DNA of 64,000 nucleotides from the NCBI GenBank assembly GCA_017477845.1, contig JAFUTR010000010.1, positions 11,282-75,281 on the forward strand, in the 5' to 3' direction. A program made the translations under genes and the position numbers. The notes beneath the pieces were generated by a model that was given only the letters and a program-made list of their open reading frames with translations, was not told where the DNA came from and did not search any database. This DNA is from Bacilli bacterium (lineage in GTDB: Bacteria > Bacillota_I > Bacilli_A > RF39 > UBA660). Below are positions 6,924-55,047 of the stretch, in pieces (position 1 is the first letter of the stretch; every line of letters starts with the position of its first letter).

Positions 6924-7094
6924 TGTATTTTTCCTCTATATTATGTTCAATTATATTTTTTAGTAAATGATAAATATCATTTTTTTCATCATAAAAGAGT
7001 CTAATTTTTTCATTCATAAAAAATCCTCCTAATAGATTTTATTAAGAGGAATAAAAAATATACAAAAAAGCGTAACTTTAAGTTACACTTTTTC

Positions 7095-7895
7095 CTACCA
7101 TGATCCTGACCAATTAACTTGAGCAACGCTAATTGCATCATATTGACTTGATATACTACCTGTATGTACAATTCCTGCTGTACCAATTACTTCATGCATT
7201 AACGCGTTTAGTAACCCATTCGATGATGTTGTTGCGTGTGCATAATCCCCACATGCAATTTGATTTATGATAGTTGATGATGCATCTGTTTTTTCGACAT
7301 CAAAATAAAATGTTTGCTCTAAGGCAGTAACATTTGTTGATGTTGGTAGCCTAAATGTTGCACTTGCACCATTTGAAAATATTTGTGGAACATGTGTTGT
7401 AGAAGTATGTTGAGTTCCGCTTTGGGTATACTTTTGAGTAAAATATAAAGTATTATTTTTAGGCTTCACAGATGCATAAAATCCAATACCAATAATGTCA
7501 TATTGTCTTGTAGCTGGGATAACTTTCCAAAACAAAATATTTCTATAGCGATAATAACTTCCATTTGCAAGAAGGTATGTTGTCATTTCTTTATATGTTG
7601 TTTCAACAGTTGTGCTTGCATTGATGGAATAATTATTAATAGCGTTTGGGTCAACTGCATCATATACTATTTTGGGAATTTCGTATGTAATTGTACTTAA
7701 TACTTCAGGATCACCATTTGTACTTTGAGTACTTGTTCCGCTATTGCTATAAACAGTTACAGTTTTATAATATTTTGTTGTTTCTCCCACTACTTCAAAA
7801 CCATCTTCATCAATGTCACCTACTTGTGCAAAAACAAAATTTGGTGTCAAAAAAAATGCAATGGCTAAACATAAAAAGTATTTTAAATTTTTCAT
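7095..7895 (-). CDS. Secreted Thr/Ser-rich protein (element cargo)
   Basis: The internal start MKNLKYFLCLAIAFFLTPNFVFAQ is a signal peptide with a GGAGGA RBS. Many NxT/S sites and T/S runs follow. Confidence 0.45.
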   Translation of the reverse strand: MKNLKYFLCLAIAFFLTPNFVFAQVGDIDEDGFEVVGETTKYYKTVTVYSNSGTSTQSTNGDPEVLSTITYEIPKIVYDAVDPNAINNYSINASTTVETTYKEMTTYLLANGSYYRYRNILFWKVIPATRQYDIIGIGFYASVKPKNNTLYFTQKYTQSGTQHTSTTHVPQIFSNGASATFRLPTSTNVTALEQTFYFDVEKTDASSTIINQIACGDYAHATTSSNGLLNALMHEVIGTAGIVHTGSISSQYDAISVAQVNWSGSW

Positions 7896-7970
7896 TTTTC
7901 CTCCTTTCATTTGTAATATTACATTTTTTGATTTGTAAAGTAGTAACAAAAATGAGATTTTTTAAATTCT

Positions 7971-8672
7971 TTAAAAATTAACAATTACATATTCTTTTTT
8001 CTCATCCTTATCATATGAAAAAACTATTTTAATTTTATTTTTATTTTTTATACTCTTATTATTTACTATAAATCCAAAATTATCAAAACTTTTTGAAATT
8101 AAAGTTGGACTGTCAAATCGTTTTTCATAAATAAATACTTCTTTATCATCATAATATACTGTAGCTATTAAGGTATTTATCATTTTTTCGCTTTTTCCAC
8201 CTAATTTGTTTTCTTTATAATATATTTTATTTATTATGAGACTTGAATTTAAGTCACTATTAACAAGCATTCCCTCTACAAGCATATCTTTTCCATTATA
8301 TTGCAATTCAGTTACTTCCCAATCATCTTTTCTTAATAAAACTATTATTAAACCTATAAGCATTATTCCAATTAAATATTTTATTATTTTCCTTTTGATT
8401 CTTTTCTTTCTTTGTTCTGGAGTTTCCTTTTTCTCTTTCTCTTCTATTTTTTCACCACATAGAATTTCATCAATTTTTACACCTAATGCATCGGCAAGTG
8501 GTTTTAAAACTGTAATATCTGGCGCTAAGTCTCCTTGCTCCCATTTTGAAATTGATTTATCGTTCACTTCTATTATTTCTGCTAACTTCTTTTGAGTTAA
8601 ACCCTTGTTCTTTCTTAACTCAGAAATATGTTTTCCCATTTTAACTAAATCGCACTTATAATTATTTTCCAT
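7971..8672 (-). CDS. XRE-family HTH transcription regulator with a transmembrane segment and extracytoplasmic domain (RsgI-like or anti-sigma-like architecture)
   Basis: LRKNKGLTQKKLAEIIEVNDKSISKWEQG is an XRE-type HTH. A basic stretch and the transmembrane helix IIKYLIGIMLIGLIIVLL follow. Start MENNYK has AGGTGG 9 nt upstream. Confidence 0.55.
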   Translation of the reverse strand: MENNYKCDLVKMGKHISELRKNKGLTQKKLAEIIEVNDKSISKWEQGDLAPDITVLKPLADALGVKIDEILCGEKIEEKEKKETPEQRKKRIKRKIIKYLIGIMLIGLIIVLLRKDDWEVTELQYNGKDMLVEGMLVNSDLNSSLIINKIYYKENKLGGKSEKMINTLIATVYYDDKEVFIYEKRFDSPTLISKSFDNFGFIVNNKSIKNKNKIKIVFSYDKDEKKEYVIVNF

Positions 8673-8750
8673 ACTACTACCACCTACAAAATAATACTTA
8701 AAATATACTACTAAAAAGAAAGAATACATTTGTTGTTAACTTCTTGAAAA

Positions 8751-32908: not shown

Positions 32909-34702
32909 TTAATTTAATGCATACCAGATTTTTGCAACATCACTGTTGTTACTATATGGTTCTGGTGATGGTTTATCCATCTTAATTGATACTGGGACTT
33001 TAAAAGCACTTCCAAATGCTATCGCACTTCCCGGTTGTAAAGTTTTAAGTATAGCAATTACTTCATCTGTTACGTTTGGAACCATTTCTTTAATATATTG
33101 CAAGTCTTTCGGATGAAGTGTTCTTAATACAATGAAGTTTGAGCATTGTGAAATACTTGTTTCACTAAGTTCACTAGGTCTTTGAGTAATAAGTCCAAGT
33201 ATTACTCCATATTTTCTTCCCTCTTTGGTAATTCTATCAAAGATATTGTATCCAAGTAGTTCTTGATCTATATCTTTTTGAACATATCTGTGTGCTTCCT
33301 CTATTATTATATGAAATGGGAATTTCCCACGATTTTCGCTGTTGGCTGCTACTTCAAATAATAATCTTGAAATAATTTTAGTTATTGATTTAGCAGTTCT
33401 ATCATCTATATAGTTAATATTAAAACCAACTAGTTGAGCTTTACCACCATCATAAGTTGTCATCAAGTCTCTTATATATCCACTTTTCGTAACCATTTGA
33501 CCATAATTGAAGTATTCTTTATATTCTCCATTTGCCAAAGCATGTAGTCTAACTGATAAGATGTTTGCATAGTCAAATACTTTATCACTTTTTAAAATAC
33601 CTTCTGATATTAAAGCAAAGTTTAATGCTTGCTCTAAGTCATCTAGATTGTACATTACATTTCCTTTTGGATTAGGTATTTCAAATCCTTCAATTATAAA
33701 TGTTGAAATAAAGTTTACAACTAGTTCCATTTCTTGCATTTTTCCAGAATTATCTACATAGATACATTGTTTTAATGTTCTAACGTAACCTGGTTGTATT
33801 ATTTGACTTTCTAGACTTAACATATCTGTATGAAATGTGGAAAGAACTGCTGTTATTTGATCTCTTATTTTAATTGAGTCTTTTCCACTTTGTAATATAT
33901 CAAGTACTGCTCTTGCGATAATATCATTTTTGCACTTGATTGCTTCTTCATCAGTTCCTTTTAAAATAGGCACAAGTTTCAAAGCTTTTTCAATTATTGG
34001 TAATTGGCTAGCTTCAGTTGCTCCAAGTAAAAGTGCTATATCATCAACATCTAAAAGCCATAAAGGAATTCTTAAAAGTTCACTATCTTTATCTTTAGTT
34101 TCTATGTTTGTCGTATATGATTTATAATTCAACTGGTTATTAAATTCATGTAAAAATGAGAATGCGTTTTTATATTCTCCATAAGCATCAAAGACAAAGA
34201 CGCTAGCATTAACTGGTAGATACTTTGATGTTGTAAAGATATTTTGAATAATTCTTGCAAATGTACAACTTTTTCCACTACCAGTGTTACCTAAAATGGC
34301 AAAGTGGTTACTAAAGAAATTATTTACTCCAACATTTATACGATATCCATTATAAATAGCAGATTTTCCAAGATACATATGTTCACTATCACTTACTTCT
34401 TGAGGCCCAAGTACTAGTTCTAGTTCTTCTTTGTTTATTATTCTTACTACTGATGCAAAAGATGGTTTAGCATTTATTCCTGGAATAAAGGCATCATCTT
34501 GTAACTCTCCCACTATTCCTACAACAATATCTTGAATAGTAACTTTAAGTATTTCTCCCACTATTCTTTTTGTACCATCATCAAATACAACATGAATATT
34601 CATTAAGTTTCCATATCCTGAAACGTTAAATTCTATTTTAATTGTTACATAGTTACCGTTAATATCAACAATTTTACCCAAGTTCCCTATCATATTCTTC
34701 AC
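32909..34702 (-). CDS. HerA-family (FtsK-HerA superfamily, DUF87-like) ATPase with an N-terminal HAS barrel
   Basis: The N-terminal β-barrel region is followed by Walker A (GNTGSGKS), Walker B (HIIIEEAHRY) and a conserved TQRPS…SQC..FIVLR motif. It ends 58 nt upstream of sepF. Confidence 0.65.
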   Translation of the reverse strand: MKNMIGNLGKIVDINGNYVTIKIEFNVSGYGNLMNIHVVFDDGTKRIVGEILKVTIQDIVVGIVGELQDDAFIPGINAKPSFASVVRIINKEELELVLGPQEVSDSEHMYLGKSAIYNGYRINVGVNNFFSNHFAILGNTGSGKSCTFARIIQNIFTTSKYLPVNASVFVFDAYGEYKNAFSFLHEFNNQLNYKSYTTNIETKDKDSELLRIPLWLLDVDDIALLLGATEASQLPIIEKALKLVPILKGTDEEAIKCKNDIIARAVLDILQSGKDSIKIRDQITAVLSTFHTDMLSLESQIIQPGYVRTLKQCIYVDNSGKMQEMELVVNFISTFIIEGFEIPNPKGNVMYNLDDLEQALNFALISEGILKSDKVFDYANILSVRLHALANGEYKEYFNYGQMVTKSGYIRDLMTTYDGGKAQLVGFNINYIDDRTAKSITKIISRLLFEVAANSENRGKFPFHIIIEEAHRYVQKDIDQELLGYNIFDRITKEGRKYGVILGLITQRPSELSETSISQCSNFIVLRTLHPKDLQYIKEMVPNVTDEVIAILKTLQPGSAIAFGSAFKVPVSIKMDKPSPEPYSNNSDVAKIWYALN

Positions 34703-42449: not shown

Positions 42450-44765
42450 TTACATCATTTCTTCTTCATTTGGTGATTCCATTTTTACAAGAACTTCTCT
42501 TGGTTTGGATCCATTTTGAGGACCTATTATTCCTCTTTCTTCAAGTAAATCTATTATTCTAGCTGCTCTATTGTAACCTAATTTAAACTTTCTTTGTAAT
42601 AAAGATGCACTAGCTTTACCTGAAGTAATTACATATTCAACAATTTCATCATAAAGTGGATCTTCATATTCTTCTTCTTTAGTTTGAACTAATCCACCTG
42701 CATTTCCTTGTTCTTTTGCTGCTTCAAGGTTTGTAAATCTTTCATCAAATTCTACTTTTTGTTGTTCAACTGCGTAATTAACAAGTGCTTCAAGTTCTTC
42801 ATCTGAAACAAATGCTCCTTGGATTCTTTCTGGAGATGATTCTCCCATTGGTAAGAATAGCATATCTCCTTTTCCTAGTAATTTTTCTGCTCCTATTGTA
42901 TCTAGAATTGTACGTGAATCTATTCCACTTGATACTGCAAAAGATATACGTGATGGAATATTTGCTTTAACTACACCTGTTATTACATCAGTTGATGGTC
43001 TTTGTGTTGCAACGATTAAATGAATTCCAGCAGCACGTGCTTTCTGAGTTATTCTCATTATTGAATCCTCAACTTCTTTTCCTGCTACCATCATCAAATC
43101 TGCAAGTTCATCTACAATAACTACAATGTAAGGCATTTTTTGAATTTTATCTTCATCGTTTCTTACTTGATTTTCTTTTTCTACCCATTCATTGTATCCA
43201 GCTATATTTCTTACATTTTTGGCTTCTAGTTCGTCATATCTTCTTTCCATCTCATCTACCATTTTTTGAAGTGCAACATTTGCTTTCTTAGCATCAGTTA
43301 CAACTGGCATTAATAAGTGTGGAATTCCATTATACATTGATAATTCAACTTTTTTAGGGTCCACTAGAACTAGTTTTACTTCATCTGGTTTTGCTCTCAT
43401 CAATATTGATGCAATTATACAGTTTATACATACTGATTTTCCTGATCCAGTTGAACCTGCAACAAGTAAATGTGGGGTTTTGTCAATCTCAGCAAATTTT
43501 GCCTTACCCATAATGTTTTTACCAAGTGCTACTAAAAGTTTATTATTTACTTTATTTTGAGGTACTTGTTCTAGTATTTCTCTTAATGAAACAGGTGATA
43601 CTGCTTCGTTAGGTATTTCTACTCCAACTGTGCTTTTTCCAGGTATTGGAGCTTCAATTCTAACATCCTTTTTAGCAAGTGCTAGTGAAATTTCTTTATT
43701 AATACTTAAAAGTTTACTAAGTTTTGTACCAGTTTGTAGTTCCATTTCATATTGGGTTACAGCAGGTCCTGAGTTTACTTCAACTACTTTTCCAATTATT
43801 CCAAAGTCTCTTAATGTTTTTTCAAGTATTTGAATATTTCTCTCTATTAAACTTTGATTATTTTGATTTTTCTTTTTATCAATATTCTTTAACAAGTTTA
43901 AAGTTGGTAATTTATAATTTGAGGTTCTAGTTTTTGGTCTTTCTTTTTCTTCTTCTACATACTCATCAGTAAGTAAAGTTTCAATATTTTCTTCTTTAAC
44001 TTCTTTTTCCATTCTTTTTAACTCATCAATGCTTGATATTACTAATTTTGTATCTTCCTGTTCAGTTTCTTTTGGTGAATTATTGTCATTTATGATTACA
44101 ACTGAATCTTTGTTATCTTCCTCTTCATCATTTTCTTCAAGAGTGTTCTCTTCTTTCTTATCTTTTGTTTTAGTAATTAATGATTTTCCTTTTTCTGCTG
44201 CATTATCGAAGAATTCTCTTATTGAAAATCCTGTAAATAAAGCAACACCGGTTAATATTATTAATGCTGATACTATTTTAGTGCCAGTTACTGCAAAAAG
44301 TGTGTTAAATATTACTGCTAGAGTACAACCAATAATTCCTCCTCCAGGAGAAGTAAAGCTGCTTCCATTTTTTATTAGTTCAAAAGCTGAAGTAATATCT
44401 TTCATAGTTGCATCATATATAGAACTTACTCCACCTGTTGTGTTTACTAAATAATTCATATGAGAAAAAACTAATATTCCAATTGATACTAATAGAAGTC
44501 CCACAAATTTTGTTGACCAAAATGATGGGCTTTTACCTTTAAATAACATATATATTCCAACAAATAGAATTGTTGCTATAAAAAGCCAATCAAGAGAACC
44601 AAACAAAAACATTGCAAAACTTCTTGCCATTTTACCAATCCATCCAAGAGGTTTACCAGGTCCATATGCAAGAATAGACAAAATAATTAAAACTAAGCCA
44701 TAAATTTCTGGTCTTACTTCTAATTTAGTTTCTTTAGCTTTTTTTCTACTTTTTCTTTTTGCCAT
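42450..44765 (-). CDS. ftsK: DNA translocase FtsK/SpoIIIE
   Basis: It has N-terminal transmembrane helices, Walker A (GSTGSGKS), Walker B (VIVDELADLM) and a C-terminal winged-helix gamma domain. The start MAKRKS has a GGAG RBS. Confidence 0.9.
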   Translation of the reverse strand: MAKRKSRKKAKETKLEVRPEIYGLVLIILSILAYGPGKPLGWIGKMARSFAMFLFGSLDWLFIATILFVGIYMLFKGKSPSFWSTKFVGLLLVSIGILVFSHMNYLVNTTGGVSSIYDATMKDITSAFELIKNGSSFTSPGGGIIGCTLAVIFNTLFAVTGTKIVSALIILTGVALFTGFSIREFFDNAAEKGKSLITKTKDKKEENTLEENDEEEDNKDSVVIINDNNSPKETEQEDTKLVISSIDELKRMEKEVKEENIETLLTDEYVEEEKERPKTRTSNYKLPTLNLLKNIDKKKNQNNQSLIERNIQILEKTLRDFGIIGKVVEVNSGPAVTQYEMELQTGTKLSKLLSINKEISLALAKKDVRIEAPIPGKSTVGVEIPNEAVSPVSLREILEQVPQNKVNNKLLVALGKNIMGKAKFAEIDKTPHLLVAGSTGSGKSVCINCIIASILMRAKPDEVKLVLVDPKKVELSMYNGIPHLLMPVVTDAKKANVALQKMVDEMERRYDELEAKNVRNIAGYNEWVEKENQVRNDEDKIQKMPYIVVIVDELADLMMVAGKEVEDSIMRITQKARAAGIHLIVATQRPSTDVITGVVKANIPSRISFAVSSGIDSRTILDTIGAEKLLGKGDMLFLPMGESSPERIQGAFVSDEELEALVNYAVEQQKVEFDERFTNLEAAKEQGNAGGLVQTKEEEYEDPLYDEIVEYVITSGKASASLLQRKFKLGYNRAARIIDLLEERGIIGPQNGSKPREVLVKMESPNEEEMM

Positions 44766-44825
44766 TATATACACTCCAGTCTATGTATTAATTATAACAC
44801 ATTTTACTAATATTTCTATCAAAAA

Positions 44826-44852
44826 TAAGAAAAAAAGAAACCATTTGGTTCC
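44826..44852 (-). terminator. Rho-independent terminator after ftsZ
   Basis: A GGAACCA/TGGTTTC hairpin is followed by a T-run on the minus strand. Confidence 0.45.
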
Positions 44853-44854
44853 TT

Positions 44855-45985
44855 TTAGTAATTTGGTCTTAAGAATGGTGGAATATCATATTTACTATCA
44901 TCACCATCATCATCTGCTAATTTCTCTATTTTTTGAGGTTCTTGAACCACTTCTGTTCTTGTTCTTCTAACTGTTTGTTGTGGAATTTCAGCTTGTTTTT
45001 GTTGAATTGGAATTTGTTTATGTTGTGTTTCAGCTTTTTCTTTATTTTTATCAAATCCAGTTGCTATAACAGTTACTATTACTTCGTCAGTTAAGTTTTC
45101 ATTAATAACAGATCCAAAAATTGTATTGATATCTGTATTTGCTGCTGCCCTTACTACTTCTGCTGCTTGTTCAGCTTCAAATAATGTTAAGTTCATTCCT
45201 CCTGTGATATTTATTATTGCATCAGTTGCTCCTGATATTGATGTTTCAAGAAGTGGAGATGATACAGCTTGTTTTGCTGCTTCGATAGCTCTTTCTTCTC
45301 CCATACCAATACCGATACCGATAATTGCATTTCCTGACTTTTCCATTACTGCTTTAACATCAGCAAAATCAAGGTTTACAAGTCCTACTACTGCAATTAA
45401 GTCAGTTATTGATTGAACACCACGACGAAGTACATTATCTACTTCTTTAAATGCTTCAAGCATTGGAGTTGTCTTATCTATTATTTCTCTTAATCTATCA
45501 TTAGGTATCACTATTAATGTATCAACATGTTTTTTTAGTTCTTCAATAGATACTAAGGCATTTTCCATTCTTTTTCTTCCTTCAAATGTAAATGGTTTTG
45601 TTACTATTGCAACTGTTAGGGCACCTAATCCTTGTGCTATTTCAGCAACTATTGGAGCTGCTCCGCTTCCAGTTCCACCCCCCATTCCACAAGTGATGAA
45701 AACCATATCAGCACCTTTTAAAGCATCTTCAATTTCTTTCTTTGCTTCTAAGGCAGCTTCTTTTCCAATTTCTGGTTTTGCTCCTGCACCTAATCCTGTC
45801 TTACCAAGTTGAATTTTAACATCAGCTTTTGATGTATTTAAAACCTGCAAATCTGTATTTGCAGCTATAAATTCTACTCCTTTAACTCCTGTTTCAACCA
45901 TGCTATTTATGGCATTTCCACCACCGCCACCGATTCCGATTACTTTAATCTTAGCAAGTTGGTCCATTTCTAATCCACCAAACAT
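44855..45985 (-). CDS. ftsZ: Cell division GTPase FtsZ
   Basis: The tubulin signature is GGGTGSG. The RBS is AAGGAGGG. It follows ftsA. Confidence 0.95.
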
Positions 45986-47245
45986 TTAATTCCCTCCTTG
46001 ATTGTAAGTAAAATATCCAAAAATTTTACTTACAAATGTATCTTCTTTTAAATCTAACATGCTTTGTTTTCCTTGTTCAATTTCTTTTATTTTAGTTTCA
46101 TTTAATAGAGATATTCTTTTTTCTCTTAATTTCATTTTATCATGGAAATATTTAATAATACCCATCGCACTTGAATACTTATTGCTTCTTATTCCCATTG
46201 TAGTGATATTTAGAGTAGTTGTATTTATTCCTAAAATATTTTCAGCAACATAGCTAAATCCTACTAATTCCGTTATACCACCTGTTACAATTATATAACT
46301 AATTTTTCTATTTGTTAAGTCATTAATTTCTTTTTTGGCAAGTTTTAGTATTTCTATAATTCTTGCTTCAACTAGTTCAGTTATTTCATATTGATTAATA
46401 GATTTCTTTTCTGCTTCTTCATTTTCAAACTCTAATACTTCATTAATATCTGCATATCTTCTACTTGCAAGTGCAAATTTTTCTTTTAGTTCTCTTGATG
46501 TATTAGAATCCGTTTGATATACATATGTAATATCTTTATCAACATATCTACTCCCTAGATTTAATATATTATTTTTTATTAGTATACCTTTATTGAAAAT
46601 AGAAACATCTGTTTTGTCATGTCCAATGTTTATAATTGCACCTATTTCTTCATCTTTTGTTTTATCTTTGCACATGAAATAGTCCCCAATGCAATTAAAT
46701 GTTATATCAACAACTTCTATATTGGCATCACTAAATACTTTTAAATAGTCATATATTTGTTTTTTTGGAGCAGTTGCAAGAAGTGCTTTAACTCCTAAGT
46801 TTTCTACTGTCATTCCAATTGGATTTTTAGTAAATTTTTCTTCTCCAACATTAAACATAATTGGTATTATTGATACTAACTCTTCACTATCTTCAATTTG
46901 TCCTTCACATGAAGCTTGTAAAACTGATACAATATCTTTTCCATTTACTGCCCCATCTGTGAAAAGAGTCCCTGAAACGACTTTTATATTTCTATTATTT
47001 GATGGCACTGTAACGATTGCTTTATCTATTTTTGTACCTAGTATTTTTTCTATTTCTTCAACTGCTAAGTTCAAAGAACTTAATGCCATTTCATGATCTA
47101 CTACAAGGCCTTTTCTTATTCCTACAGATTTAACAGATGTTGATGCTAATACTTGAAATTTTTCTTTTATTAGCTCAGCAACTACAATTTTTATGTTATC
47201 ACTACCTAAATCTATACCAGTATAAATATTTCTCATATCTCGCAC
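45986..47245 (-). CDS. ftsA: Cell division protein FtsA (actin-like ATPase)
   Basis: The N-terminal actin-fold motif is GIDLGSDNIKIVVAE. It is 419 aa and sits upstream of ftsZ. Confidence 0.9.
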   Translation of the reverse strand: MRDMRNIYTGIDLGSDNIKIVVAELIKEKFQVLASTSVKSVGIRKGLVVDHEMALSSLNLAVEEIEKILGTKIDKAIVTVPSNNRNIKVVSGTLFTDGAVNGKDIVSVLQASCEGQIEDSEELVSIIPIMFNVGEEKFTKNPIGMTVENLGVKALLATAPKKQIYDYLKVFSDANIEVVDITFNCIGDYFMCKDKTKDEEIGAIINIGHDKTDVSIFNKGILIKNNILNLGSRYVDKDITYVYQTDSNTSRELKEKFALASRRYADINEVLEFENEEAEKKSINQYEITELVEARIIEILKLAKKEINDLTNRKISYIIVTGGITELVGFSYVAENILGINTTTLNITTMGIRSNKYSSAMGIIKYFHDKMKLREKRISLLNETKIKEIEQGKQSMLDLKEDTFVSKIFGYFTYNQGGN

Positions 47246-47289
47246 CTACTATCTATTTTTTATTATACTAGCATAAATTTAGAAAAACA

Positions 47290-47330
47290 AGAAAATAAGA
47301 AAAAAAAGAAAAAGAGATGTACTCTTTTTT
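47290..47330 (-). terminator. Rho-independent terminator closing the bacteriocin operon
   Basis: An AAAAAGAG-tacat-CTCTTTTT hairpin is followed by CTTTTTTTTC on the minus strand. Confidence 0.55.
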
Positions 47331-47331
47331 C

Positions 47332-47499
47332 TTAACAGACTACTATAGAATATAAACTTCTTAGGAATGTTCCAAGATAAATTCCAATATTAAATATTGA
47401 AACTATCATTATATTAAGTATATAGGCAGCAATTGGCGCTAGAAGTATTCCAATTATAATTTTTTTATAATTAGATAATTGTTTTATGGTATTTCGCAC
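47332..47499 (-). CDS. Small hydrophobic protein (putative bacteriocin immunity protein)
   Basis: The open frame gives VRNIKQLSNYKKIIIGILLAPIAAYILNIMIVSIFNIGIYLGTFLRSLYSIVVC* (2 predicted transmembrane helices). A GTG start at 47499 sits 9 nt after AGGA; an alternative ATG is at 47409. It lies immediately downstream of the two peptide genes. Confidence 0.35.
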   Translation of the reverse strand: MRNTIKQLSNYKKIIIGILLAPIAAYILNIMIVSIFNIGIYLGTFLRSLYSIVVC

Positions 47500-47657
47500 A
47501 AGCGTTTATCCTTTATTCTTCTTATTGATGAACCAAAACTTCTACCAATATCTACAAGTGTTTTGAGTCCTTGTGAGATAGCAGTTATTAATGTTCCAGT
47601 TATTGTATCTCCACCATCAAGATTTTTAAGTTCTTCTTTTGTTATTCTTTCCATCAT
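47484..47657 (-). CDS. Double-glycine-leader bacteriocin precursor, peptide B (57 aa)
   Basis: The product is MMERITKEELKNLDGG followed by DTITGTLITAISQGLKTLVDIGRSFGSSIRRIKDKRLCEIP. The leader follows the LS..EL..I.GG consensus. The mature part carries GxxxG-like motifs and is cationic. The start lies 1 nt after the stop of peptide A, suggesting translational coupling. Confidence 0.65.
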   Translation of the reverse strand: MMERITKEELKNLDGGDTITGTLITAISQGLKTLVDIGRSFGSSIRRIKDKRLCEIP

Positions 47658-47658
47658 A

Positions 47659-47799
47659 TTAATTACACTTTTGTGGTCTTACAAAACCATCAATTGCTCC
47701 AACTACAAATGTTACTCCAGCTACTATACCTAATGCTGCTAAAAAGCTTAATCCTCCACCATTTATTCTTTTTAAATCTTTATTTTCTAGTGTTTCCAT
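47659..47799 (-). CDS. Double-glycine-leader bacteriocin precursor, peptide A (46 aa)
   Basis: The RBS is AAGGGGGAATAAA before ATG. The product is METLENKDLKRINGG followed by GLSFLAALGIVAGVTFVVGAIDGFVRPQKCN. The leader ends in GG and the mature peptide has GxxxG motifs (GIVAG, GAIDG). It is below the ORF-track cutoff. Confidence 0.7.
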   Translation of the reverse strand: METLENKDLKRINGGGLSFLAALGIVAGVTFVVGAIDGFVRPQKCN

Positions 47800-47800
47800 T

Positions 47801-48235
47801 TTATTCCCCCTTAAATGTTTTTATTAAGTATTCAAAAATTGTAAATCTGTTTGTGATTATTCTACCTTCAATATAATTATTATCTATCATAAATTTATCT
47901 GCATTTCCCTTATCATTTTCTATTTTAATTTTTATTATTTTATAAAGACTATTTTCATTAATATAATCACTTATTTCATCTATTTTATAAGTAAATATGT
48001 TCCTTTCTATCATTATTTTATTATTAGCTGTAATTGTATTAATGTCATTTAGACTTGTTATAATTTCAAGTTTATTTTTGCTAATAGTTATGCCAACTTT
48101 ATAATAGTCTATTAATGAGTTATTAAGTAAAACAATCAGTAATATAATCCCTAATAAAATAGTTACTACTTTTATATAAATTTTTGTATTAACTTCTTTG
48201 TTCTTGAAATTTTCTTGAAATTCTTCTATTTTCAT
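47801..48235 (-). CDS. Single-pass membrane protein (short accessory or immunity-like component of the exporter locus)
   Basis: It is 144 aa with one transmembrane helix (IKVVTILLGIILLIVLL) and then a soluble domain. It is much shorter than HlyD/LcnD-type accessory proteins. It overlaps the 3' end of the ABC gene. Confidence 0.4.
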   Translation of the reverse strand: MKIEEFQENFKNKEVNTKIYIKVVTILLGIILLIVLLNNSLIDYYKVGITISKNKLEIITSLNDINTITANNKIMIERNIFTYKIDEISDYINENSLYKIIKIKIENDKGNADKFMIDNNYIEGRIITNRFTIFEYLIKTFKGE

Positions 48236-50294
48236 ACTCTTTCATATTATAGACTTCGTCAAATAGATCATTATTATTAAATCTATGTGAAATCACTATA
48301 ATTGTTTTATCACTAAATCTATTAAATATATTTTTCATTATTTCTCTTTCTTTTTCAATATTTATTTCACTAAATGATTCATCTAATATATAGATGTTGC
48401 TTTCTTTTAAAAATGCTCTTGCTAGTATTATTCTTTGTCTTTGACCACCGCTAATATTTCTCCCATTTTCTTCTAGCATCATATTATAACCATTTTTACT
48501 ATTATTAATAATTTCATCTATTTTCATCATATTACAAATATCTATTATTTTGTTTTTATTTTTAATGGATTTCAAAGTAATATTTTCAAATATTGTACTA
48601 CTAAATATATACTCATTTTGTGAGACATATGTAACTTGCTCTCGTAAAGACCATAGATTAATATCATTAATATCCACATTATCAATAAAAACTTTATTTC
48701 TTTTTATATTTAAATATCCTGATATAATTTTAGCAAGGGTACTTTTCCCACAACCTGATTCGCCATACAATAGTACTTTTTTCCCTTTTTCTATTGTTAA
48801 ATTTAAATTATTAATTATATTTTCATCACTATATTTGTATGATAGATTTTTTATTTCAATATTTCCTTTTATATTTTTTATAGGGTTTATGTCATAATAT
48901 AGTTTTTCTTCTTTTATGTTTAAAAGTTCATTAATTCTTTCAATAGCTATTTTAGATTTTTTATAAGTGATATCGTAATTTATTATATTTTTAAGTGAAT
49001 TTATGTTAAAAAGTATTATGCTATTAAAGCTTATTAGAGTTGAAAGTTTCATCTCATTATTAATTACTAAGCCTCCTCCAATCATTAGAATTATTAATGA
49101 AATTACACTTATTGATACTGTTTCAATCAGTTCTTTGTCTATTATAATATTTGAAAATGAATAACTGCTATTTAAGAATTTATTATAGATAAGAGAAAAA
49201 TTTTCTTTACTTTTTTCTAAAATATTGAGACTTTTTATTGAATCTATTCCGTTAATTAATTCAATAATACTTGAATTTACTATCGCGTTTTTTTCTTTTA
49301 CATCTTTTATTTTATTATATAAATATTTGTTGATGATATAGTTTGACATTACATATATAAATATGATGGTCAGTATAATAATGGTTAGTTTTTTGTTAAG
49401 ACTTAATAATATAACGAATGATGAAAGACATATTACTAAGTCAATACAAATTGTAATAAAGAAATCACATAGAGTGTTTTTAAGTTCATCTAAATCTGTT
49501 ATTCGTGATAAAACTTCTCCAGTAGTTCTATTTTTAAAATAGAGATGAGGAAGTGATAAAATGTGATTTAATGAATCAATAATCAAAGTATAATTCAATT
49601 TGTGGGAAATAAAATTGATAAGTTTGTTTCGGGAAAAGTCAAGTGTGTTTTTCAAAGAATATATAAAGAAAAATAAGAAAATTAAAGTATAGAGGTTATC
49701 ATATGAATTATTTTCTATCGCTCTATCAATAACAAATTGAAAGTTAAGTGAAATTAAAATATTTAGAATTACATATATTCCTGAAAAAACAAATATTGTA
49801 ACTAGTGTTTTTTTATTGTCATAAATAAAACTAGTTACTTTATTTTTTATAACACTTTCTTCTTCCATTACAGGAATTTTAGTGTTAGGGGTAAAAATCA
49901 AATAATTATTTGTTGAAATTAATTTAAATTTATCTATATCAATTTTTAATATGCCTCTTGCAGGATCTGCAATAGTAACATATTTGTTTTGCCTATCAAT
50001 TTTATGAATTACGACAAAATGATTATATTTGTTATCAATTACTACGTGTGCAATGCATGGTAAATATTTATCTTCTATATTGAGAATGTCACCTTTAACC
50101 CCTGTGGAATAAAAACCTAGTTTTTTCCCTGCTTCTACTAAAGAGAGTGCATTAACACCATTCTTAGTTGTATTTGTTATATTTCGTAAGTATTCTTTTG
50201 AAACATAACCGTTGTGACTCTTAATAATAGTAAGAAGTGCGCAAATACCACAATCTTTAGGACCATCTTGCATCACGCATTCAAATCTTTTCAT
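48189..50294 (-). CDS. Peptide-export ABC transporter with an N-terminal C39 (double-glycine) peptidase domain
   Basis: QDGPKDCGICALLTIIKSHNG is the C39 cysteine motif. A six-helix transmembrane domain follows. The nucleotide-binding domain has Walker A GESGCGKST, signature LSGGQRQR and Walker B ILDESFS. Confidence 0.85.
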   Translation of the reverse strand: MKRFECVMQDGPKDCGICALLTIIKSHNGYVSKEYLRNITNTTKNGVNALSLVEAGKKLGFYSTGVKGDILNIEDKYLPCIAHVVIDNKYNHFVVIHKIDRQNKYVTIADPARGILKIDIDKFKLISTNNYLIFTPNTKIPVMEEESVIKNKVTSFIYDNKKTLVTIFVFSGIYVILNILISLNFQFVIDRAIENNSYDNLYTLIFLFFFIYSLKNTLDFSRNKLINFISHKLNYTLIIDSLNHILSLPHLYFKNRTTGEVLSRITDLDELKNTLCDFFITICIDLVICLSSFVILLSLNKKLTIIILTIIFIYVMSNYIINKYLYNKIKDVKEKNAIVNSSIIELINGIDSIKSLNILEKSKENFSLIYNKFLNSSYSFSNIIIDKELIETVSISVISLIILMIGGGLVINNEMKLSTLISFNSIILFNINSLKNIINYDITYKKSKIAIERINELLNIKEEKLYYDINPIKNIKGNIEIKNLSYKYSDENIINNLNLTIEKGKKVLLYGESGCGKSTLAKIISGYLNIKRNKVFIDNVDINDINLWSLREQVTYVSQNEYIFSSTIFENITLKSIKNKNKIIDICNMMKIDEIINNSKNGYNMMLEENGRNISGGQRQRIILARAFLKESNIYILDESFSEINIEKEREIMKNIFNRFSDKTIIVISHRFNNNDLFDEVYNMKEYENRRISRKFQEQRS

Positions 50295-50433
50295 CTCTCA
50301 CCTCCTCACTAAGATTATTATACATTTCTTTCTCTTTCCCTAAAAAAATGGTTAATTTTTTTAATTTTTTTTAAATTATTATCTTAATGACATTTTTTTA
50401 CAAAAAAAATCTAGTTTAAAACTAGATTAAATA

Positions 50434-51747
50434 CTATTTTTTCTCAGTTATATTTCCCTCTTCATCTATTAAAGCATTAATGCTCCAAGAGTTCAAATCT
50501 TTTATAAGTCTTTCTTTTTCATCGTCTTTGATAAAATCTGTAAACATATTTTCTTGAAGTGCTGGAAGCATTTTATAATTCATTGTTCCATCATTATTCA
50601 AAACTATTTGAAATATTGCAGTATACTCTTTTTGACTATTAAAAATAAAATCTCCTAAATTATATATTATTGGTTTTTCTTTATAGAATTCTATTCCTTG
50701 TAATACATGAGCATGATGTCCAATTATAACGTCTGCTCCTGCATCAACATATTTTTTTGCACTTTCGACTTGTTCTTTTTCAAGCTCATGGGATCCTTCT
50801 TTTCCAAAATGCATTATTACTATTACGTAGTCACTATTATCTCTAATACTTTTTATCTGATTAACCATATTAGTTGTATCATAGCATCTAAATACTCCAG
50901 GGCTATCAATAGTGGCATCTTTCGTCATAATATATTTTTCTGCTCTTGTTCCATTTAAAAAAGCTATTTTATATCCGTTTATTATAAAATAATATGCTTC
51001 TTTAGCTTCATCTAAGTTATGTCCTGCTCCAATATGAGGTATTTTATATTCATCGAAAGCATCAAGCATATCCAAAAACGCATCCATTCCAAAGTCATAT
51101 ACATGATTATTAGCAAGTGTAACAAGGTCTATTCCCATCTCAGAATAAATTGAAAGTCTTTCTTTCTTAGCTCTAAAAGTATATTGTTTTCCATTTAAAG
51201 GTGTACCTCTACTACTTACAGTAAACTCTGAATTTGCAACCATCAAGTCACTATCATTCATTGTTTTTACAACTTCTTCTGATAATATTCCATATACTTT
51301 TTTTCCTCTTTCATCATACTTTGGCATAATAAACCAGTTATCAGCAAGAGAAATATCTCCAACAAAACTTAAAGTACTTGGACTATTTGACTCCATAACA
51401 GTAACATTATCCATGGAATCATATTTTTTATTATATAAATCGTTTAGCACTAAAAAAGAGTTTCCTGTAGCTTCATGCCATATTTTTTTATCATACTCAT
51501 TTGTTTCTAATTTATTATTAATACTTTCTAATGCATTCTCATAATTATCATCTATCCATTTTAAAAAGTTTTTATCGATATTTTGATTATTAATTTTTTC
51601 ATATACAAGAGTTACATAATCTATCTCTTCTTTAATAACTTCTTTTTTATTCTCTTTATTAATATGTGGTATTATTATTGCAATTCCTATTAATAAAATG
51701 ATAATTATTATTAATTTTATCCAATTTTTCCATTTCAACTTTTTCAT
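50434..51747 (-). CDS. CapA/PgsA-family metallophosphoesterase-like membrane-anchored protein
   Basis: The C-terminal calcineurin-like motifs are GDISLADN, IMHFGKEG, GADVIIGHHAHVLQG and the N-terminus has a transmembrane anchor. The probable start MKKLKW has an AAGAGG RBS. Confidence 0.6.
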   Translation of the reverse strand: MKKLKWKNWIKLIIIIILLIGIAIIIPHINKENKKEVIKEEIDYVTLVYEKINNQNIDKNFLKWIDDNYENALESINNKLETNEYDKKIWHEATGNSFLVLNDLYNKKYDSMDNVTVMESNSPSTLSFVGDISLADNWFIMPKYDERGKKVYGILSEEVVKTMNDSDLMVANSEFTVSSRGTPLNGKQYTFRAKKERLSIYSEMGIDLVTLANNHVYDFGMDAFLDMLDAFDEYKIPHIGAGHNLDEAKEAYYFIINGYKIAFLNGTRAEKYIMTKDATIDSPGVFRCYDTTNMVNQIKSIRDNSDYVIVIMHFGKEGSHELEKEQVESAKKYVDAGADVIIGHHAHVLQGIEFYKEKPIIYNLGDFIFNSQKEYTAIFQIVLNNDGTMNYKMLPALQENMFTDFIKDDEKERLIKDLNSWSINALIDEEGNITEKK

Positions 51748-52064
51748 TTTTAACCTCTTATATAATAAATTGTATATTAAGTTTATAAAAATAGCAAAGC
51801 AAATGTCTTTATTTTTATTCATTATTTTAAATATTAATAAATTAATAAATAAGCAAACTGTAATAGTTCGTTTAATGTATTGGTATTTTTTGTTTATTAT
51901 TTACTTTATTTTCAATGTATTCCAGGTTATTAAATGATTATTATTTTTTAGTAATTTCATTTTTTTCTATCTTGTTCTAATATTATTTTTAACATTGTTA
52001 TCACCTGTATACAAAATACTGCAAAAACACATAGTAATCAAGTGTATACATACTGAACAATTTA

Positions 52065-52088
52065 AAAAAGAACTATAAAAGTTTGACT
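52065..52088. repeat. Direct repeat copy A (AAAAAAGAACTATAAAAGTTTGAC)
   Basis: It matches 53212..53238 (AAAAAACGAACTATAAAAGTTCGAA). The 14-bp core GAACTATAAAAGTT is identical. Confidence 0.5.
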
Positions 52089-52277
52089 AATTTACATATC
52101 GAGTGATTGATTAAGTTATTTACAACTTTTTATCGCTCAAATTGAAAATCTATCAAAATATCAATTTCTAATATTTTTTTAATATAATATGTTATTATAA
52201 TTAAGTATTATTTTATTTATGGATTTGGATTAACTTAATAGATAAAAATGTGTATAATTAAGCTATGCGAGGTGAAT

Positions 52278-52949
52278 ATCATGAAACGATTAAATATATT
52301 TGTAGATGAAACTGGTGAATTTGGATTTGGTAGTGGTGCTTCAGAGTTGTATGGTGTTTCATTTACTTTTCATGAACAAAATGATGATATTATGACTGAA
52401 CTAAATAAGCTAAACAATCGATTAGAAAGAATTGGATATACGGATATGATTCATATGGCTGACTTAATCATGAAACGCGGAGATTATTCTAGATTTCCTA
52501 TAGATAAAAGAAAAAGTATATTTAATTCAATATATCAATTTTCTAGAAAAATACCTGTAAAATATAAAACTATCATTATAGATAAAAAATATACTGATAA
52601 TGGGAGAATATTAAAACAAAGGTTATCTATAGAAATCAATAATATGGTTAAAGAATATGAAAAATATTTTAGTAATTTTGATAGTATAGTAATGTATTAT
52701 GATAATGGTCAAGAAGTTTTAGGTACTATTTTTGATGCCATATTTTCAAGATATGTCGGCTTTGAACATAGAATTGATTTTGATCATAAAGAAAAAAGAT
52801 TATTTCAAGTTTCGGATATGCTTACTTATATTGATAAATATGATTATAAATATAAAAATAAAATGTCATTTACTAAAAGTGAAAAATATTTCTTTAGTTT
52901 ATATGAAATTAGAAGAATATTAAAAGAACTTAATAAAAAGCGATTCTAA
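52278..52949 (+). CDS. DUF3800-family protein
   Basis: The start MKRLNIFVDETGEFGFGSG has the N-terminal hVDEtG motif typical of DUF3800. The RBS is GAGGTGA. It is a lone plus-strand gene with its own terminator. Confidence 0.55.
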   Translation: MMKRLNIFVDETGEFGFGSGASELYGVSFTFHEQNDDIMTELNKLNNRLERIGYTDMIHMADLIMKRGDYSRFPIDKRKSIFNSIYQFSRKIPVKYKTIIIDKKYTDNGRILKQRLSIEINNMVKEYEKYFSNFDSIVMYYDNGQEVLGTIFDAIFSRYVGFEHRIDFDHKEKRLFQVSDMLTYIDKYDYKYKNKMSFTKSEKYFFSLYEIRRILKELNKKRF

Positions 52950-52954
52950 ACATA

Positions 52955-52985
52955 AAAAAAGCAACCTTTATGGTTGCTTTTTTTA
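52955..52985 (+). terminator. Rho-independent terminator of the DUF3800 gene
   Basis: A GCAACC-tttat-GGTTGC hairpin is followed by T7. Confidence 0.7.
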
Positions 52986-53211
52986 GCGGCGCTTGGCGCC
53001 AACACGGGTTTGATCCGATGAATAAATTCAACAGACCAAGATGTAGATATAACAATATCTACAATATTATTATATCTATTCTACAAGTAAATTATACCAA
53101 ACATATTTTTAAATGTAAATATATAAGATAAAAACTCCTTGTTTGTAGTTAGTTATTTTACACTAAATATATTAAAAATGTCAATATATTAAAATATAAA
53201 ATGTTTTTAAT

Positions 53212-53238
53212 AAAAAAACGAACTATAAAAGTTCGAAT
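53212..53238. repeat. Direct repeat copy B; it also forms the terminator hairpin downstream of tRNA-Cys
   Basis: It contains a CGAACT-ataaa-AGTTCG hairpin with a T-run on the minus strand. It is the partner of 52065..52088. Confidence 0.5.
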
Positions 53239-53248
53239 ATTTTTCATA

Positions 53249-53322
53249 TGGAGGGCCTAGTCGGATTTGAACCAACGATCGGGGAGTTGCAGTCCCATGC
53301 CTTACCACTTGGCTATAGACCC
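53249..53322 (-). tRNA. tRNA-Cys (anticodon GCA) with encoded CCA
   Basis: The minus-strand sequence is GGGTCTATAGCCAAGTGGTAAGGCATGGGACTGCAACTCCCCGATCGTTGGTTCAAATCCGACTAGGCCCTCCA. The acceptor stem is GGGTCTA/TAGGCCC. The T arm is GTTGG-TTCAAAT-CCGAC. The anticodon loop is CTGCAAC. The discriminator U73 is characteristic of tRNA-Cys. Confidence 0.85.
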
Positions 53323-53391
53323 GTCAATATGTATTAATTTTATAACATATTTCATGTTATGTCAATAAATTATATGATAAAAGGAAGAAGA

Positions 53392-55047
53392 TTATTCACT
53401 CTCTTCTTCCTCATTTTCTATAGTTTCAGTATTATCTTTGATGATGTATGTATATGATTTATCTCTTATTACAAAATCTAAATAAATCTTATCAGCTTTT
53501 AATAATCTATCTGTTACTTCAAGATATGAAAAATTGTACATTTGAAAAGGTGTTTTGTCTACTAATGATAATTTATATTCATATTCTTTTCCATTAACTT
53601 CATATCTTATTTTTCCATATTTAGAAATAAACTCTACATTGTTATAATTGCTTCCTAATGTATCAGTATCAAACATAATATCATAATTAACTCTCATAAG
53701 TGTTAAATCTACTGTAGAGTTTCTTGATGCATTTATAACATCTGTATTTTTCTTACAAGCACCAGTATTACAACTAATAATATTGTAATAGAAACTATCA
53801 CCGAATCTTACATCATTTATTTTTATTTGAGAATTTCCAAATAAGCTTCCTTCAAATGATAAATACTCTCCAAGTGATTTTGTGTCCATGTTTTCAACTT
53901 TATTATTGAATGTTTTTGGAGCTATTTTAATAGTTCTATAATTATAATTTGTTTCATTTTTATCACGTGTTATATTATATAAATATCTAAACTCAAAATT
54001 GTTATTATCATAATACTCCAAAGGTACTTCAAAAATAAATACAAAATCTCTAGTTTCATTTTCATATATAATTTGACTATAATAGTTAGTTCCAAACTCT
54101 TTTAATTTATTATTTAATTCAGTTGTAGGTGCTACACTTTCATAATCATTATATTTAAGTCTAATTTTTGAAGTATCTATTGAATAACTACTATTTATTT
54201 TATTAATATATCTTACTTTAGTTATAATATAAAAATTTTTAGTATTTATTTTTTCGCCATTTGATAATGTATTTGTTTTGTAACTATCTAATATTTTGAA
54301 TTTATAACTTGAAAAATCAATTGTGTCACCTATTTTATATATTCTCTGCCTAGATAAAAAGGCTTTTCCTGCTAATAATACTATAATTATAGCAATTACA
54401 GATATAAATGAATTTATTAGAAAGGCATTTTCTTTGTAAAAGTATTTTAATTTTATTGCTCCTTTTTTAGTTTGAGCTTTTATGGCATCCTTATCAATAT
54501 CTACTTGGACTTCATATTCTTCATTATCTTCAGTGTTTATTCCTAAATCTAAAAGGTCCCTTTTGAAATCGAATTTTTTTACGTCAAAACCTATAGCACG
54601 TAGAAAGCATGATATTATAATTGGAATCTGCACTATAGCAAGTACCCAATATACATCTCTTATTATATTTATAATCCTTAAGTCCTGCACATTGTATTCT
54701 AGCCCACTTATAAAACTTGCAGCTAAGAAATATGATATTAGTACTAATACATATACTACTGTTATATATAGATAAAAGAAAAATGGTTTCTTTTTATATC
54801 GTAGCAAATAAATAATTATACCTGCAAGGAATAAAATTACTATAGCTAAAAAAGTCATTAATCCATTTACGTAATCACCTGATAAATCTCTAGCTATATT
54901 TTGATTTTTTAAATAAGAACTAAAGAAATTAATTATATTCCATGATTTAGTAAATAAATAAATTGCTGAACCTAGCAATAAAGCATGTATTATTTTAAAA
55001 TGCTTTACTAAAAATGCATATGGTTTTTTTAGTATCATCACAATCAC
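53392..55047 (-). CDS. Polytopic membrane protein (about 5 N-terminal transmembrane helices) with a large extracytoplasmic C-terminal domain
   Basis: Hydrophobic helices lie in the first ~230 aa, then a 300-aa Asn/Tyr-rich domain containing a CNTGAC pair. No family can be assigned. Confidence 0.4.
   Translation of the reverse strand: MIVMILKKPYAFLVKHFKIIHALLLGSAIYLFTKSWNIINFFSSYLKNQNIARDLSGDYVNGLMTFLAIVILFLAGIIIYLLRYKKKPFFFYLYITVVYVLVLISYFLAASFISGLEYNVQDLRIINIIRDVYWVLAIVQIPIIISCFLRAIGFDVKKFDFKRDLLDLGINTEDNEEYEVQVDIDKDAIKAQTKKGAIKLKYFYKENAFLINSFISVIAIIIVLLAGKAFLSRQRIYKIGDTIDFSSYKFKILDSYKTNTLSNGEKINTKNFYIITKVRYINKINSSYSIDTSKIRLKYNDYESVAPTTELNNKLKEFGTNYYSQIIYENETRDFVFIFEVPLEYYDNNNFEFRYLYNITRDKNETNYNYRTIKIAPKTFNNKVENMDTKSLGEYLSFEGSLFGNSQIKINDVRFGDSFYYNIISCNTGACKKNTDVINASRNSTVDLTLMRVNYDIMFDTDTLGSNYNNVEFISKYGKIRYEVNGKEYEYKLSLVDKTPFQMYNFSYLEVTDRLLKADKIYLDFVIRDKSYTYIIKDNTETIENEEEESE

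Follow-up and report, generated by a model that had tools for sequence, protein, structure and literature searches.

The window analyzed here, a 64,000-nucleotide stretch of contig JAFUTR010000010.1 from a metagenome-assembled genome deposited as 'Bacilli bacterium', carries on its minus strand, between positions 47332 and 50294, five overlapping or abutting genes that encode an ATP-binding cassette (ABC) exporter, a 144-residue membrane protein (p144), two small precursors with double-glycine leaders (peptides A and B) and a hydrophobic 55-residue membrane protein (orf55). We propose that the five genes probably form an operon whose product is a class IIb-like bacteriocin of two peptides, and that A and B belong to a new family of such peptide pairs. 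The locus would not be a new kind of system; as a new member it would in effect found a class IIb-like family that has not been described before, large and unnamed, which is spread through low guanine-plus-cytosine (GC), uncultured Firmicutes of the gut and rumen and stands out by its minimal adaptor, by an invariant Cys in each peptide of the pair and by an evolution that appears vertical and is unusually slow.

Gene content of the cassette

In class IIb systems, as reviewed by Nissen-Meyer (PMC2850506), adjacent peptide genes in one operon encode unmodified peptides whose double-glycine leaders of 15-30 residues are cut after Gly-Gly, both peptides contain GxxxG or GxxxG-like motifs, and the operon also provides a dedicated leader-removing ABC transporter, an accessory protein and an immunity gene. 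The cassette contains adjacent peptide genes, leaders of this type, an exporter, an accessory protein and GxxxG motifs in both products, and the lineages examined share no modification enzyme within or alongside it. For the immunity gene, orf55 is well placed, coupled to B and under purifying selection, yet it is absent from some distant lineages (see below). As the cassette has the other class IIb features that can be read from sequence, we take the operon to be that of a two-peptide bacteriocin.

The earlier note on this DNA, which was made from its letters alone, had proposed the same class IIb architecture from two adjacent Gly-Gly-leader GxxxG peptides and a C39 exporter. Its coordinates and sequences were reproduced, as were the exporter, the 144-residue protein, A, B, the hydrophobic open reading frame (ORF) and ftsA-ftsZ that it had listed, and its descriptions of a strong ribosome-binding site ahead of A (AAGGGGGAA, 47804-47812), of a B gene that begins 1 nt past the A stop, and of the leader type, mature length, GxxxG motifs and C-terminal Cys of both peptides. 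It had called the operon unannotated, which holds for orf55, for which the protein collection has no entry; A and B are present in GenBank as 'hypothetical protein' (MBR1385523.1 and MBR1385522.1, respectively).

Peptide A consists of the leader METLENKDLKRINGG followed by the mature sequence GLSFLAALGIVAGVTFVVGAIDGFVRPQKCN, a hydrophobic peptide of 31 residues with a net charge of +1, GxxxG motifs at positions 9 and 19, and one Cys near its C-terminus. Gly19, Gly23, Pro27 and Cys30 of mature A are invariant in 17 lineages. Peptide B has the leader MMERITKEELKNLDGG, which measures 16 residues, or 15, as the gene opens with two Met codons in a row and relatives point to the second as the translation start. 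Its mature part, DTITGTLITAISQGLKTLVDIGRSFGSSIRRIKDKRLCEIP, is a strongly amphipathic peptide of 41 residues (moment 0.76) with a net charge of +3, GxxxG at position 22, a single Cys near the C-terminus and a conserved Ser/Thr-rich N-terminus, x-S-I-[ST]-G-[ST]. AlphaFold predicts residues 18-49 of the B precursor as one long helix, with a predicted local distance difference test score (pLDDT) of 84-95 in the core, a helix that includes the GxxxG and leaves the tail with the Cys disordered. The leaders of both peptides, compared in 10 lineages, have hydrophobic residues at -4, -7, -12 and -15 and Glu or Asp at -8. Profile searches with A and B against PDB sequences, solved class IIb peptides included, gave chance-level matches only.

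The exporter matched Peptidase_C39 (4e-30), ABC_membrane (8e-28) and ABC_tran (3e-29) of Pfam above the cut-offs. Its best NCBIfam model was TIGR01193, a peptide cleavage/export ABC transporter, which aligned end to end at 409.3 bits, below the cut-off of 523.85; as the three-domain architecture passes Pfam and the model score does not reach its cut-off, we regard the protein as a divergent member of the TIGR01193 type. Across 18 homologues no change is seen in the C39 catalytic residues (Gln9, Cys15, His92 and Asp110), in the Walker A and B motifs, in the H-loop or in the signature motif, suggesting that the exporter should be an active leader peptidase and pump.

The p144 protein, encoded at 47801-48235 of the minus strand, has a single transmembrane segment, as the earlier note had it, which is N-terminal and is followed by one predicted beta-barrel. 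It matches no Pfam or NCBIfam family, and its homologues measure 134-153 residues. Fold comparison revealed that p144 resembles a stripped-down membrane-fusion adaptor, and its predicted model has no lipoyl domain, alpha-hairpin or membrane-proximal domain. The likeness to the periplasmic adaptors BesA, MacA, EmrA and AcrA is thus at the level of fold, as those proteins are multi-domain and p144 is a transmembrane helix with one barrel only. Bacilli and Firmicutes, as these hosts are labelled, generally have no outer membrane to bridge.

The GTG start of orf55 falls within the 3' end of the B gene, and in every lineage that has the ORF its start codon, seen as GTG, TTG or ATG, is formed by the last nucleotide of the preceding codon and the TG of B's Cys codon (TGY; 47496-47499 in the window). 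This overlap is kept between lineages whose exporters are just ~35% identical. B's Cys is also retained where the third ORF is absent, suggesting that selection keeps it for what the peptide itself does, over and above its part in the overlapping start codon. No Pfam or NCBIfam family matched orf55. When the window was compared with its relative L001, for which the counts of changes are small, the ratio of non-synonymous to synonymous change (pN/pS) was 0.08 for ftsA, 0.11 for the exporter, 0.13 for orf55 (7 synonymous vs 3 non-synonymous changes), 0.27 for B, 0.37 for p144 and 0.53 for A. In A, B and orf55 alike the annotated frame is the one with the highest number of synonymous changes, and all three small ORFs have coding-type substitution patterns, in line with their wider conservation.

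On the bacteriocin reading, a constitutive-type promoter would yield one transcript from which the genes are translated in a coupled manner, as their overlaps and the shared placement of a Shine-Dalgarno sequence suggest. The cytoplasmic C39 domain would cut both precursors after Gly-Gly, and the exporter would pump the mature peptides out with p144, anchored by its transmembrane helix, supplying a small barrel like that of a membrane-fusion protein as the accessory, a role to which its predicted fold points. Outside the cell, A as a hydrophobic transmembrane-like helix and B as a cationic amphipathic helix would pair through their GxxxG motifs in the target membrane and cause it to leak, and the near-invariant C-terminal cysteines may join the two by a disulfide. 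Shielding of the producer would fall to orf55, which is the weakest step of this scheme.

The closest parallel in parts list is lactococcin G (lagA and lagB, with lagC for immunity and lagD for the ABC transporter), whose peptides, immunity gene, transporter and accessory protein are encoded in one operon (PMC2850506). The two systems share adjacent peptide genes, Gly-Gly leaders of 15-16 residues, GxxxG motifs in helical peptides of 30-40 residues and a small protein at the immunity-gene position. They have no sequence relationship, with NF038034 scoring 15.9 bits vs a cut-off of 37 and NF038035 less, and in the present cassette the exporter comes first and the peptides last, A is near neutral, each peptide has a single conserved Cys, and the candidate immunity protein is just 55 residues long and missing from some lineages. 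All seven A orthologues tested matched TIGR03949, the class IIb model of lactobin A/cerein 7B, at 16.1-27.6 bits over the leader and the Gly-rich hydrophobic N-terminal part, although L009 alone passed the cut-off (27.6), the matched stretch takes in little of the conserved C-terminal sequence of A, G-x-[ILFV]-[DE]-G-x-x-[RN]-P-x-x-C, and B matches by its leader only. Against PF10439 (Bacteriocin_IIc), peptide A scored 17.9 bits and its best orthologue 23.5, below the gathering cut-off of 27.1. The loci of plantaricin EF/JK and ABP-118/salivaricin P have three-component pheromone regulation and HlyD-family accessories of ~450 residues, and vary between strains, whereas here no kinase or regulator was found among the 20 window ORFs tested, the accessory has 134-153 residues and the cassette is on every contig read for the species. 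What these loci do have in common with it are complementary GxxxG pairs and a C39-ABC exporter with an accessory protein (PMC2850506).

Table 1. Features of the cassette in the window (all on the minus strand).
Feature	Position	Strand	Description
ABC exporter (701 aa)	48189..50294	-	C39 peptidase, transmembrane domain and ATPase
p144 (144 aa)	47801..48235	-	N-terminal transmembrane helix and beta-barrel; minimal membrane-fusion-protein-like accessory; its first 47 nt overlap the exporter gene
Peptide A precursor (46 aa)	47659..47799	-	Leader of 15 aa at 47755-47799; mature part of 31 aa at 47662-47754
Peptide B precursor (57 aa)	47484..47657	-	Leader at 47610-47657; cationic amphipathic mature part of 41 aa at 47487-47609
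orf55 (55 aa)	47332..47499	-	Hydrophobic membrane protein; candidate immunity protein
Putative sigma-70-type promoter	50317..50344	-	-35 TTTAGG, -10 TATAAT
Exporter Shine-Dalgarno sequence GAGGAGGTGA	50298..50307	-	Invariant in 11 lineages
Peptide A Shine-Dalgarno sequence AAGGGGGAA	47804..47812	-	Corresponds to the Lys-Gly-Glu codons that close p144
Intrinsic-terminator-like AT-rich hairpin with U-run	47290..47335	-	Inverted repeat; closes the cassette

Distribution of the cassette and of the peptide B family

The cassette was found in more than 15 lineages. The relative lineage L001-L008 has the same gene order as the window and peptides ~83-86% identical to those of the window. An exporter scan of species-representative genomes gave five full-length relatives with 49-66% identity (L009-L013), and look-ups of p144 homologues together with a metagenome scan added L028, L030-L032 and L034-L040. 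The exporter, p144, A, B and orf55 are all present in that order in these loci, most of which place the cassette directly upstream of ftsA-ftsZ; in the exceptions, L009 and L037, orf55 remains with the cassette. L031 is a variant contig of the L030 lineage, and a deletion in it (1760-1960, compared with L030) removes the C-terminus of this third ORF and the terminator, and fuses the ORF to the ftsA promoter region.

Six distant members of the B family (L041 and L043-L047) were viewed in their genomic context. All six loci encode a C39 exporter, 31-39% identical to that of the window in a multiple alignment, an A-like peptide of 46-49 residues, and B. The 134-153-residue accessory is present in each of them except L041, and the third small ORF, which is found in every lineage of the rumen clade, is present in L043, L045 and L047 and absent from L041, L044 and L046. 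The cassette lies upstream of rpsU-yqeY-yabP-yqfD in L041, L045 and L046, upstream of rpsU-yqeY in L043, upstream of relA in L044 and just after sepF-divIVA in L047. In 17/17 lineages, over a range of exporter identity of 31-92%, A and B are adjacent or overlapping and co-occur in a fixed order, and no lineage with A alone or B alone was found among those examined.

A word-indexed protein search returned one close relative per peptide only, giving a false impression of rarity that was corrected by an exhaustive HMMER search of 1.84 billion cluster representatives (E <= 0.001), in which the B family comprised at least 202 clusters at 50% identity. Features were counted in the 119 members of 45-62 residues among the best 150 of these 202 clusters. 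Both Gly residues of the GxxxG are 100% conserved in these representatives, as against 87-89% for the Arg-Arg that follows it and 97% for the C-terminal Cys; 114/117 have GG as cleavage dipeptide, and the mature peptides have a length of ~40 residues and are cationic in 88% of cases, with a median charge of +4. None of the 20 B-family clusters looked up has a functional name, the labels being 'unknown' or 'hypothetical protein' only; one member labelled 'unknown', CDD28220.1 of Clostridium sp. CAG:433, was counted on 933 public contigs. Two database products are longer: P0039 (102 aa) combines A-like and B-like precursors, each with a Gly-Gly leader, in one product, and in P0069 (103 aa) a B-like precursor is preceded by a long additional N-terminal segment, which has a Gly-Gly of its own. 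Read-through or mis-calling probably accounts for both. A full-text search with motifs of A and B found no relevant paper, and the gut atlas of IIBacFinder may list such peptides in bulk.

Alternative roles for the two peptides

Several observations weigh against a bacteriocin. The structural peptides of bacteriocins usually vary far more than the export machinery, and their loci are often present in one strain and missing from another. In the distant lineages compared here, the exporters share on average 36% pairwise identity, the mature A peptides 43% and the mature B peptides 39% (61%, 64% and 54%, respectively, in the rumen clade); the peptides are thus no more variable than the transporter, which suggests long-term purifying selection on both. 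Identity to the window declines in step across proteins, from FtsZ (88-92%) through FtsK (73-80%), FtsA (68-76%) and the exporter (49-66%) to p144 (35-49%), with L012 the most distant lineage for every protein compared, a pattern that fits vertical descent. Judged from these comparisons the cassette appears to be vertically inherited, it always lies among housekeeping genes, and 10/10 contigs read for the window's species, which have an FtsZ identical to that of the window, carry the same neighbourhood including the cassette. Such slow, vertical evolution in a housekeeping setting is unusual for a bacteriocin locus. The products themselves add further points. Most class IIb peptides are cationic, and the charge of mature A ranges from -2 to +1, which is nearly neutral. 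Peptide A scores 20.0 bits against TIGR03949, just below the cut-off of 21.5, and B belongs to no curated family, with few matches, via the leader only, and none to PF10439. Gut and rumen samples, from which the hosts derive, are anaerobic, making an extracellular disulfide uncertain. The accessory protein is missing from one of the six distant lineages, and the absence of orf55 from 3/6 of them leaves immunity unexplained there. The hydrophobic ORF that the earlier note had put forward as the immunity gene is still the best candidate, being translationally coupled to B and under purifying selection, and the assignment is weaker than that note assumed.

The same observations would suit a pair that is not a weapon, namely a conserved heterodimer, either secreted or inserted into the membrane, whose target would be the producer itself or its kin and which would serve as a signal or envelope factor, with orf55 as its membrane partner or receptor. 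We consider such a role unlikely, and we give the same low weight to a version of it in which an ancient, vertically inherited system exports a heterodimer, held by GxxxG packing and possibly a disulfide, for a conserved task in the physiology of the producer or its kin, for example in the envelope, in division or in signalling linked to sporulation, throughout a wide clade of uncultured low-GC Firmicutes of the gut and rumen. Speaking for it are peptides conserved as strongly as the exporter, a divergence that follows that of the host core proteins FtsZ, FtsA and FtsK, the presence of the cassette on every contig read for the species, its housekeeping setting, which is twice beside division genes (upstream of ftsA-ftsZ and, in L047, downstream of sepF-divIVA), and the fact that orf55 is dispensable in some lineages; a GxxxG and a Cys that are near-invariant in at least 119 clusters moreover imply a conserved binding partner. 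These points are countered by the absence of any kinase, response regulator or other regulator that is conserved with the cassette. None of the 20 tested window ORFs of suitable size encodes a histidine kinase or response regulator, as the earlier note had remarked of the neighbourhood, and none is conserved across the loci. In L043 (1025-2916), and in no other lineage examined, a response regulator of the OmpR type lies with a histidine kinase two genes upstream of the exporter, with an SLT-domain gene between. Known Gly-Gly-leader pheromones are short, whereas the mature peptides here have 31 and 41 residues and one of them is a transmembrane-like hydrophobic helix. The chromosomal position also varies by clade (ftsA, rpsU, relA, sepF-divIVA and others), and the cassette, which lacks pheromone-box repeats, is served by a putative promoter and a terminator of its own. 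With the pheromones ComC, BlpC and EntF the peptides share the leader type and the exporter class, as well as weak model matches that are confined to the leader; they differ from them in the length of the mature peptides, the transmembrane-like character of one and the lack of an adjacent kinase or regulator. The locus does not show the make-up of a three-component pheromone circuit of the ComC/BlpC/Pln type, in which the gene for a short mature peptide adjoins those of a cognate histidine kinase and response regulator.

If the peptides are bacteriocins, they need not act together. Many Gly-Gly-leader loci, such as those of the blp type, place several unrelated peptides behind one exporter, and with this precedent the difference between a hydrophobic, neutral A and an amphipathic, cationic B could be taken to mean that each is a one-peptide (class IId-type) bacteriocin in its own right, with nothing but the exporter in common. 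This is very unlikely, as the two co-occur strictly and in a fixed order in every lineage compared, lineages with only one of them were not found among those examined, and their overlapping or abutting stop and start codons favour equimolar synthesis. In each mature peptide, moreover, just one GxxxG is invariant and just one Cys, at the C-terminal end, is conserved.

We regard it as extremely improbable that the product is a peptide made by the ribosome and modified after translation, in which, for example, an enzyme encoded elsewhere would link the single Cys to the N-terminal Ser/Thr-rich stretch of B through a lanthionine or another thioether; the conserved Ser/Thr-rich start and the one Cys of mature B are compatible with this, and a neighbouring PGA_cap protein is weakly like the lasso-peptide epimerase MslH (66 bits vs a cut-off of 700), but none of the lineages examined has a modification enzyme within or adjoining the cassette, and a terminator separates the PGA_cap gene from it. 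PGA_cap was rejected as a peptide-modifying enzyme, since its gene adjoins the cassette solely in the window's own species (the window and L048), not in L001 or the other lineages, and the upstream flank is variable.

Transcription signals, gene calling and flanking genes

Alignment of the region upstream of the exporter from 11 lineages revealed a conserved T-T-G/A-G-G followed after ~17 nt by [TA]ATAAT, which, judged by its conservation, is a putative sigma-70-like promoter of the cassette. No direct repeats or pheromone boxes were found upstream of the exporter. At the other end of the cassette, the terminator hairpin has a folding energy of -8.4 to -10.3 kcal/mol in the window, and a hairpin with a U-run is present at the same spot in five diverged lineages, with stems that differ in sequence and energies of -8 to -14 kcal/mol. 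The 'clean terminator' of the earlier note was thus right in being a hairpin with a U-run, whose structure is conserved, and less clean than described, as it is AT-rich and a GC-based scan misses it. Downstream of the cassette lie ftsA (45986-47245), then ftsZ and ftsK, and ftsA has a promoter-like element of its own at 47250-47290, consisting of TTGTTT, a spacer of ~17 nt and the extended -10 TGCTAGTATAAT, the core of which, TAGTATAAT, is conserved in every ftsA-linked lineage. This suggests that the division genes are transcriptionally separate from the cassette. A functional tie to ftsA-ftsZ is unsupported, given this promoter, the cassette's own terminator and its placement elsewhere in other clades.

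The sequence AAGGGGGAA stands at a fixed spacing before the start of A in all lineages in which p144 has the Lys-Gly-Glu terminus. The start codon itself varies, being ATG in the window, L001, L009, L012, L013, L028 and L036, ATT in L010 and L011, ATC in L035, TTG in L037, and ATA in L030/L031, L032, L034 and L039. At the loci without ATG (for example L010:8483-8632, L011:8483-8632, L030:7509-7650 and L032:5921-6064), A lies in frame behind the p144 stop, which is mostly TGA and in L034 is TAG. This combination of a near-cognate or TTG start and an in-frame position behind the p144 stop leads gene callers to miss A, as in L030/L031, or, under genetic code 4, to fuse it to p144, as in five database entries of 188-190 residues (P0022, P0024, P0026, P0028 and P0030) that run from p144 into A through a TGA taken for Trp. 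In L048 it is B that is missed. A true code-4 read-through fusion was rejected, as 88% of the window is coding under table 11, TGG stands for Trp in 119 codons, and TGA is a rare but genuine stop that ends 3/41 genes. These organisms thus use the standard code, and the fusions are gene-calling artefacts. As callers trip on near-cognate starts, on in-frame TGA read as Trp and on overlapping starts, peptide-mining surveys probably under-count such loci.

The flank upstream of the exporter differs among relatives. In the window, the segment between the cassette and a conserved gene of 551 codons (50434-53330) holds the PGA_cap gene, a 233-residue ORF without a family and a tRNA-Cys gene (53249-53322), the last being the sole hit of an Rfam scan of 44500-54000; relatives have different genes in this region, suggesting an insertion hot spot. 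In five lineages a divergently transcribed gene just upstream of the exporter encodes a single-pass membrane protein of 212-249 residues that contains a zinc ribbon and matches DUF4352 weakly (L009:5228-5878, L010:5215-5895, L011:5259-5897, L028:5165-5845 and L030:4247-4996), accompanied in three of the five by a companion of 153-160 residues (for example L010:4704-5165). The window has neither gene. Of the divergent families upstream, fam5 and fam7 are either like zinc-ribbon/DUF4352 proteins or without match, and are not regulators. Further away, the low-coordinate end of the window encodes a large serine recombinase with Resolvase, Recombinase and Zn_ribbon_recom domains (5445-6923) and, near it, an HTH_3 regulator (7971-8729), which suggests an integrated mobile element (5445-8729). 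Between 22817 and 38945 lies a series of very large ORFs (1649, 973 and 1373 aa) along with an ATPase of the HerA-like DUF87 kind (32909-34702); the L048 gene table assigns DUF285 to the 1373-aa protein.

If the bacteriocin reading is right, the locus marks a large, unnamed class IIb-like family in bacteria of the herbivore and human gut, with no cultured representatives among the records seen. Its few invariant positions, a GxxxG and a Cys in each peptide and the Arg-Arg in B, would make well-defined targets for synthesis, and p144 would offer a natural minimal accessory for the study of peptidase-containing ABC exporters. The pattern of conservation also suggests that some 'bacteriocin-like' Gly-Gly pairs may be parts of cell physiology that are kept by vertical descent, and not fast-evolving weapons.

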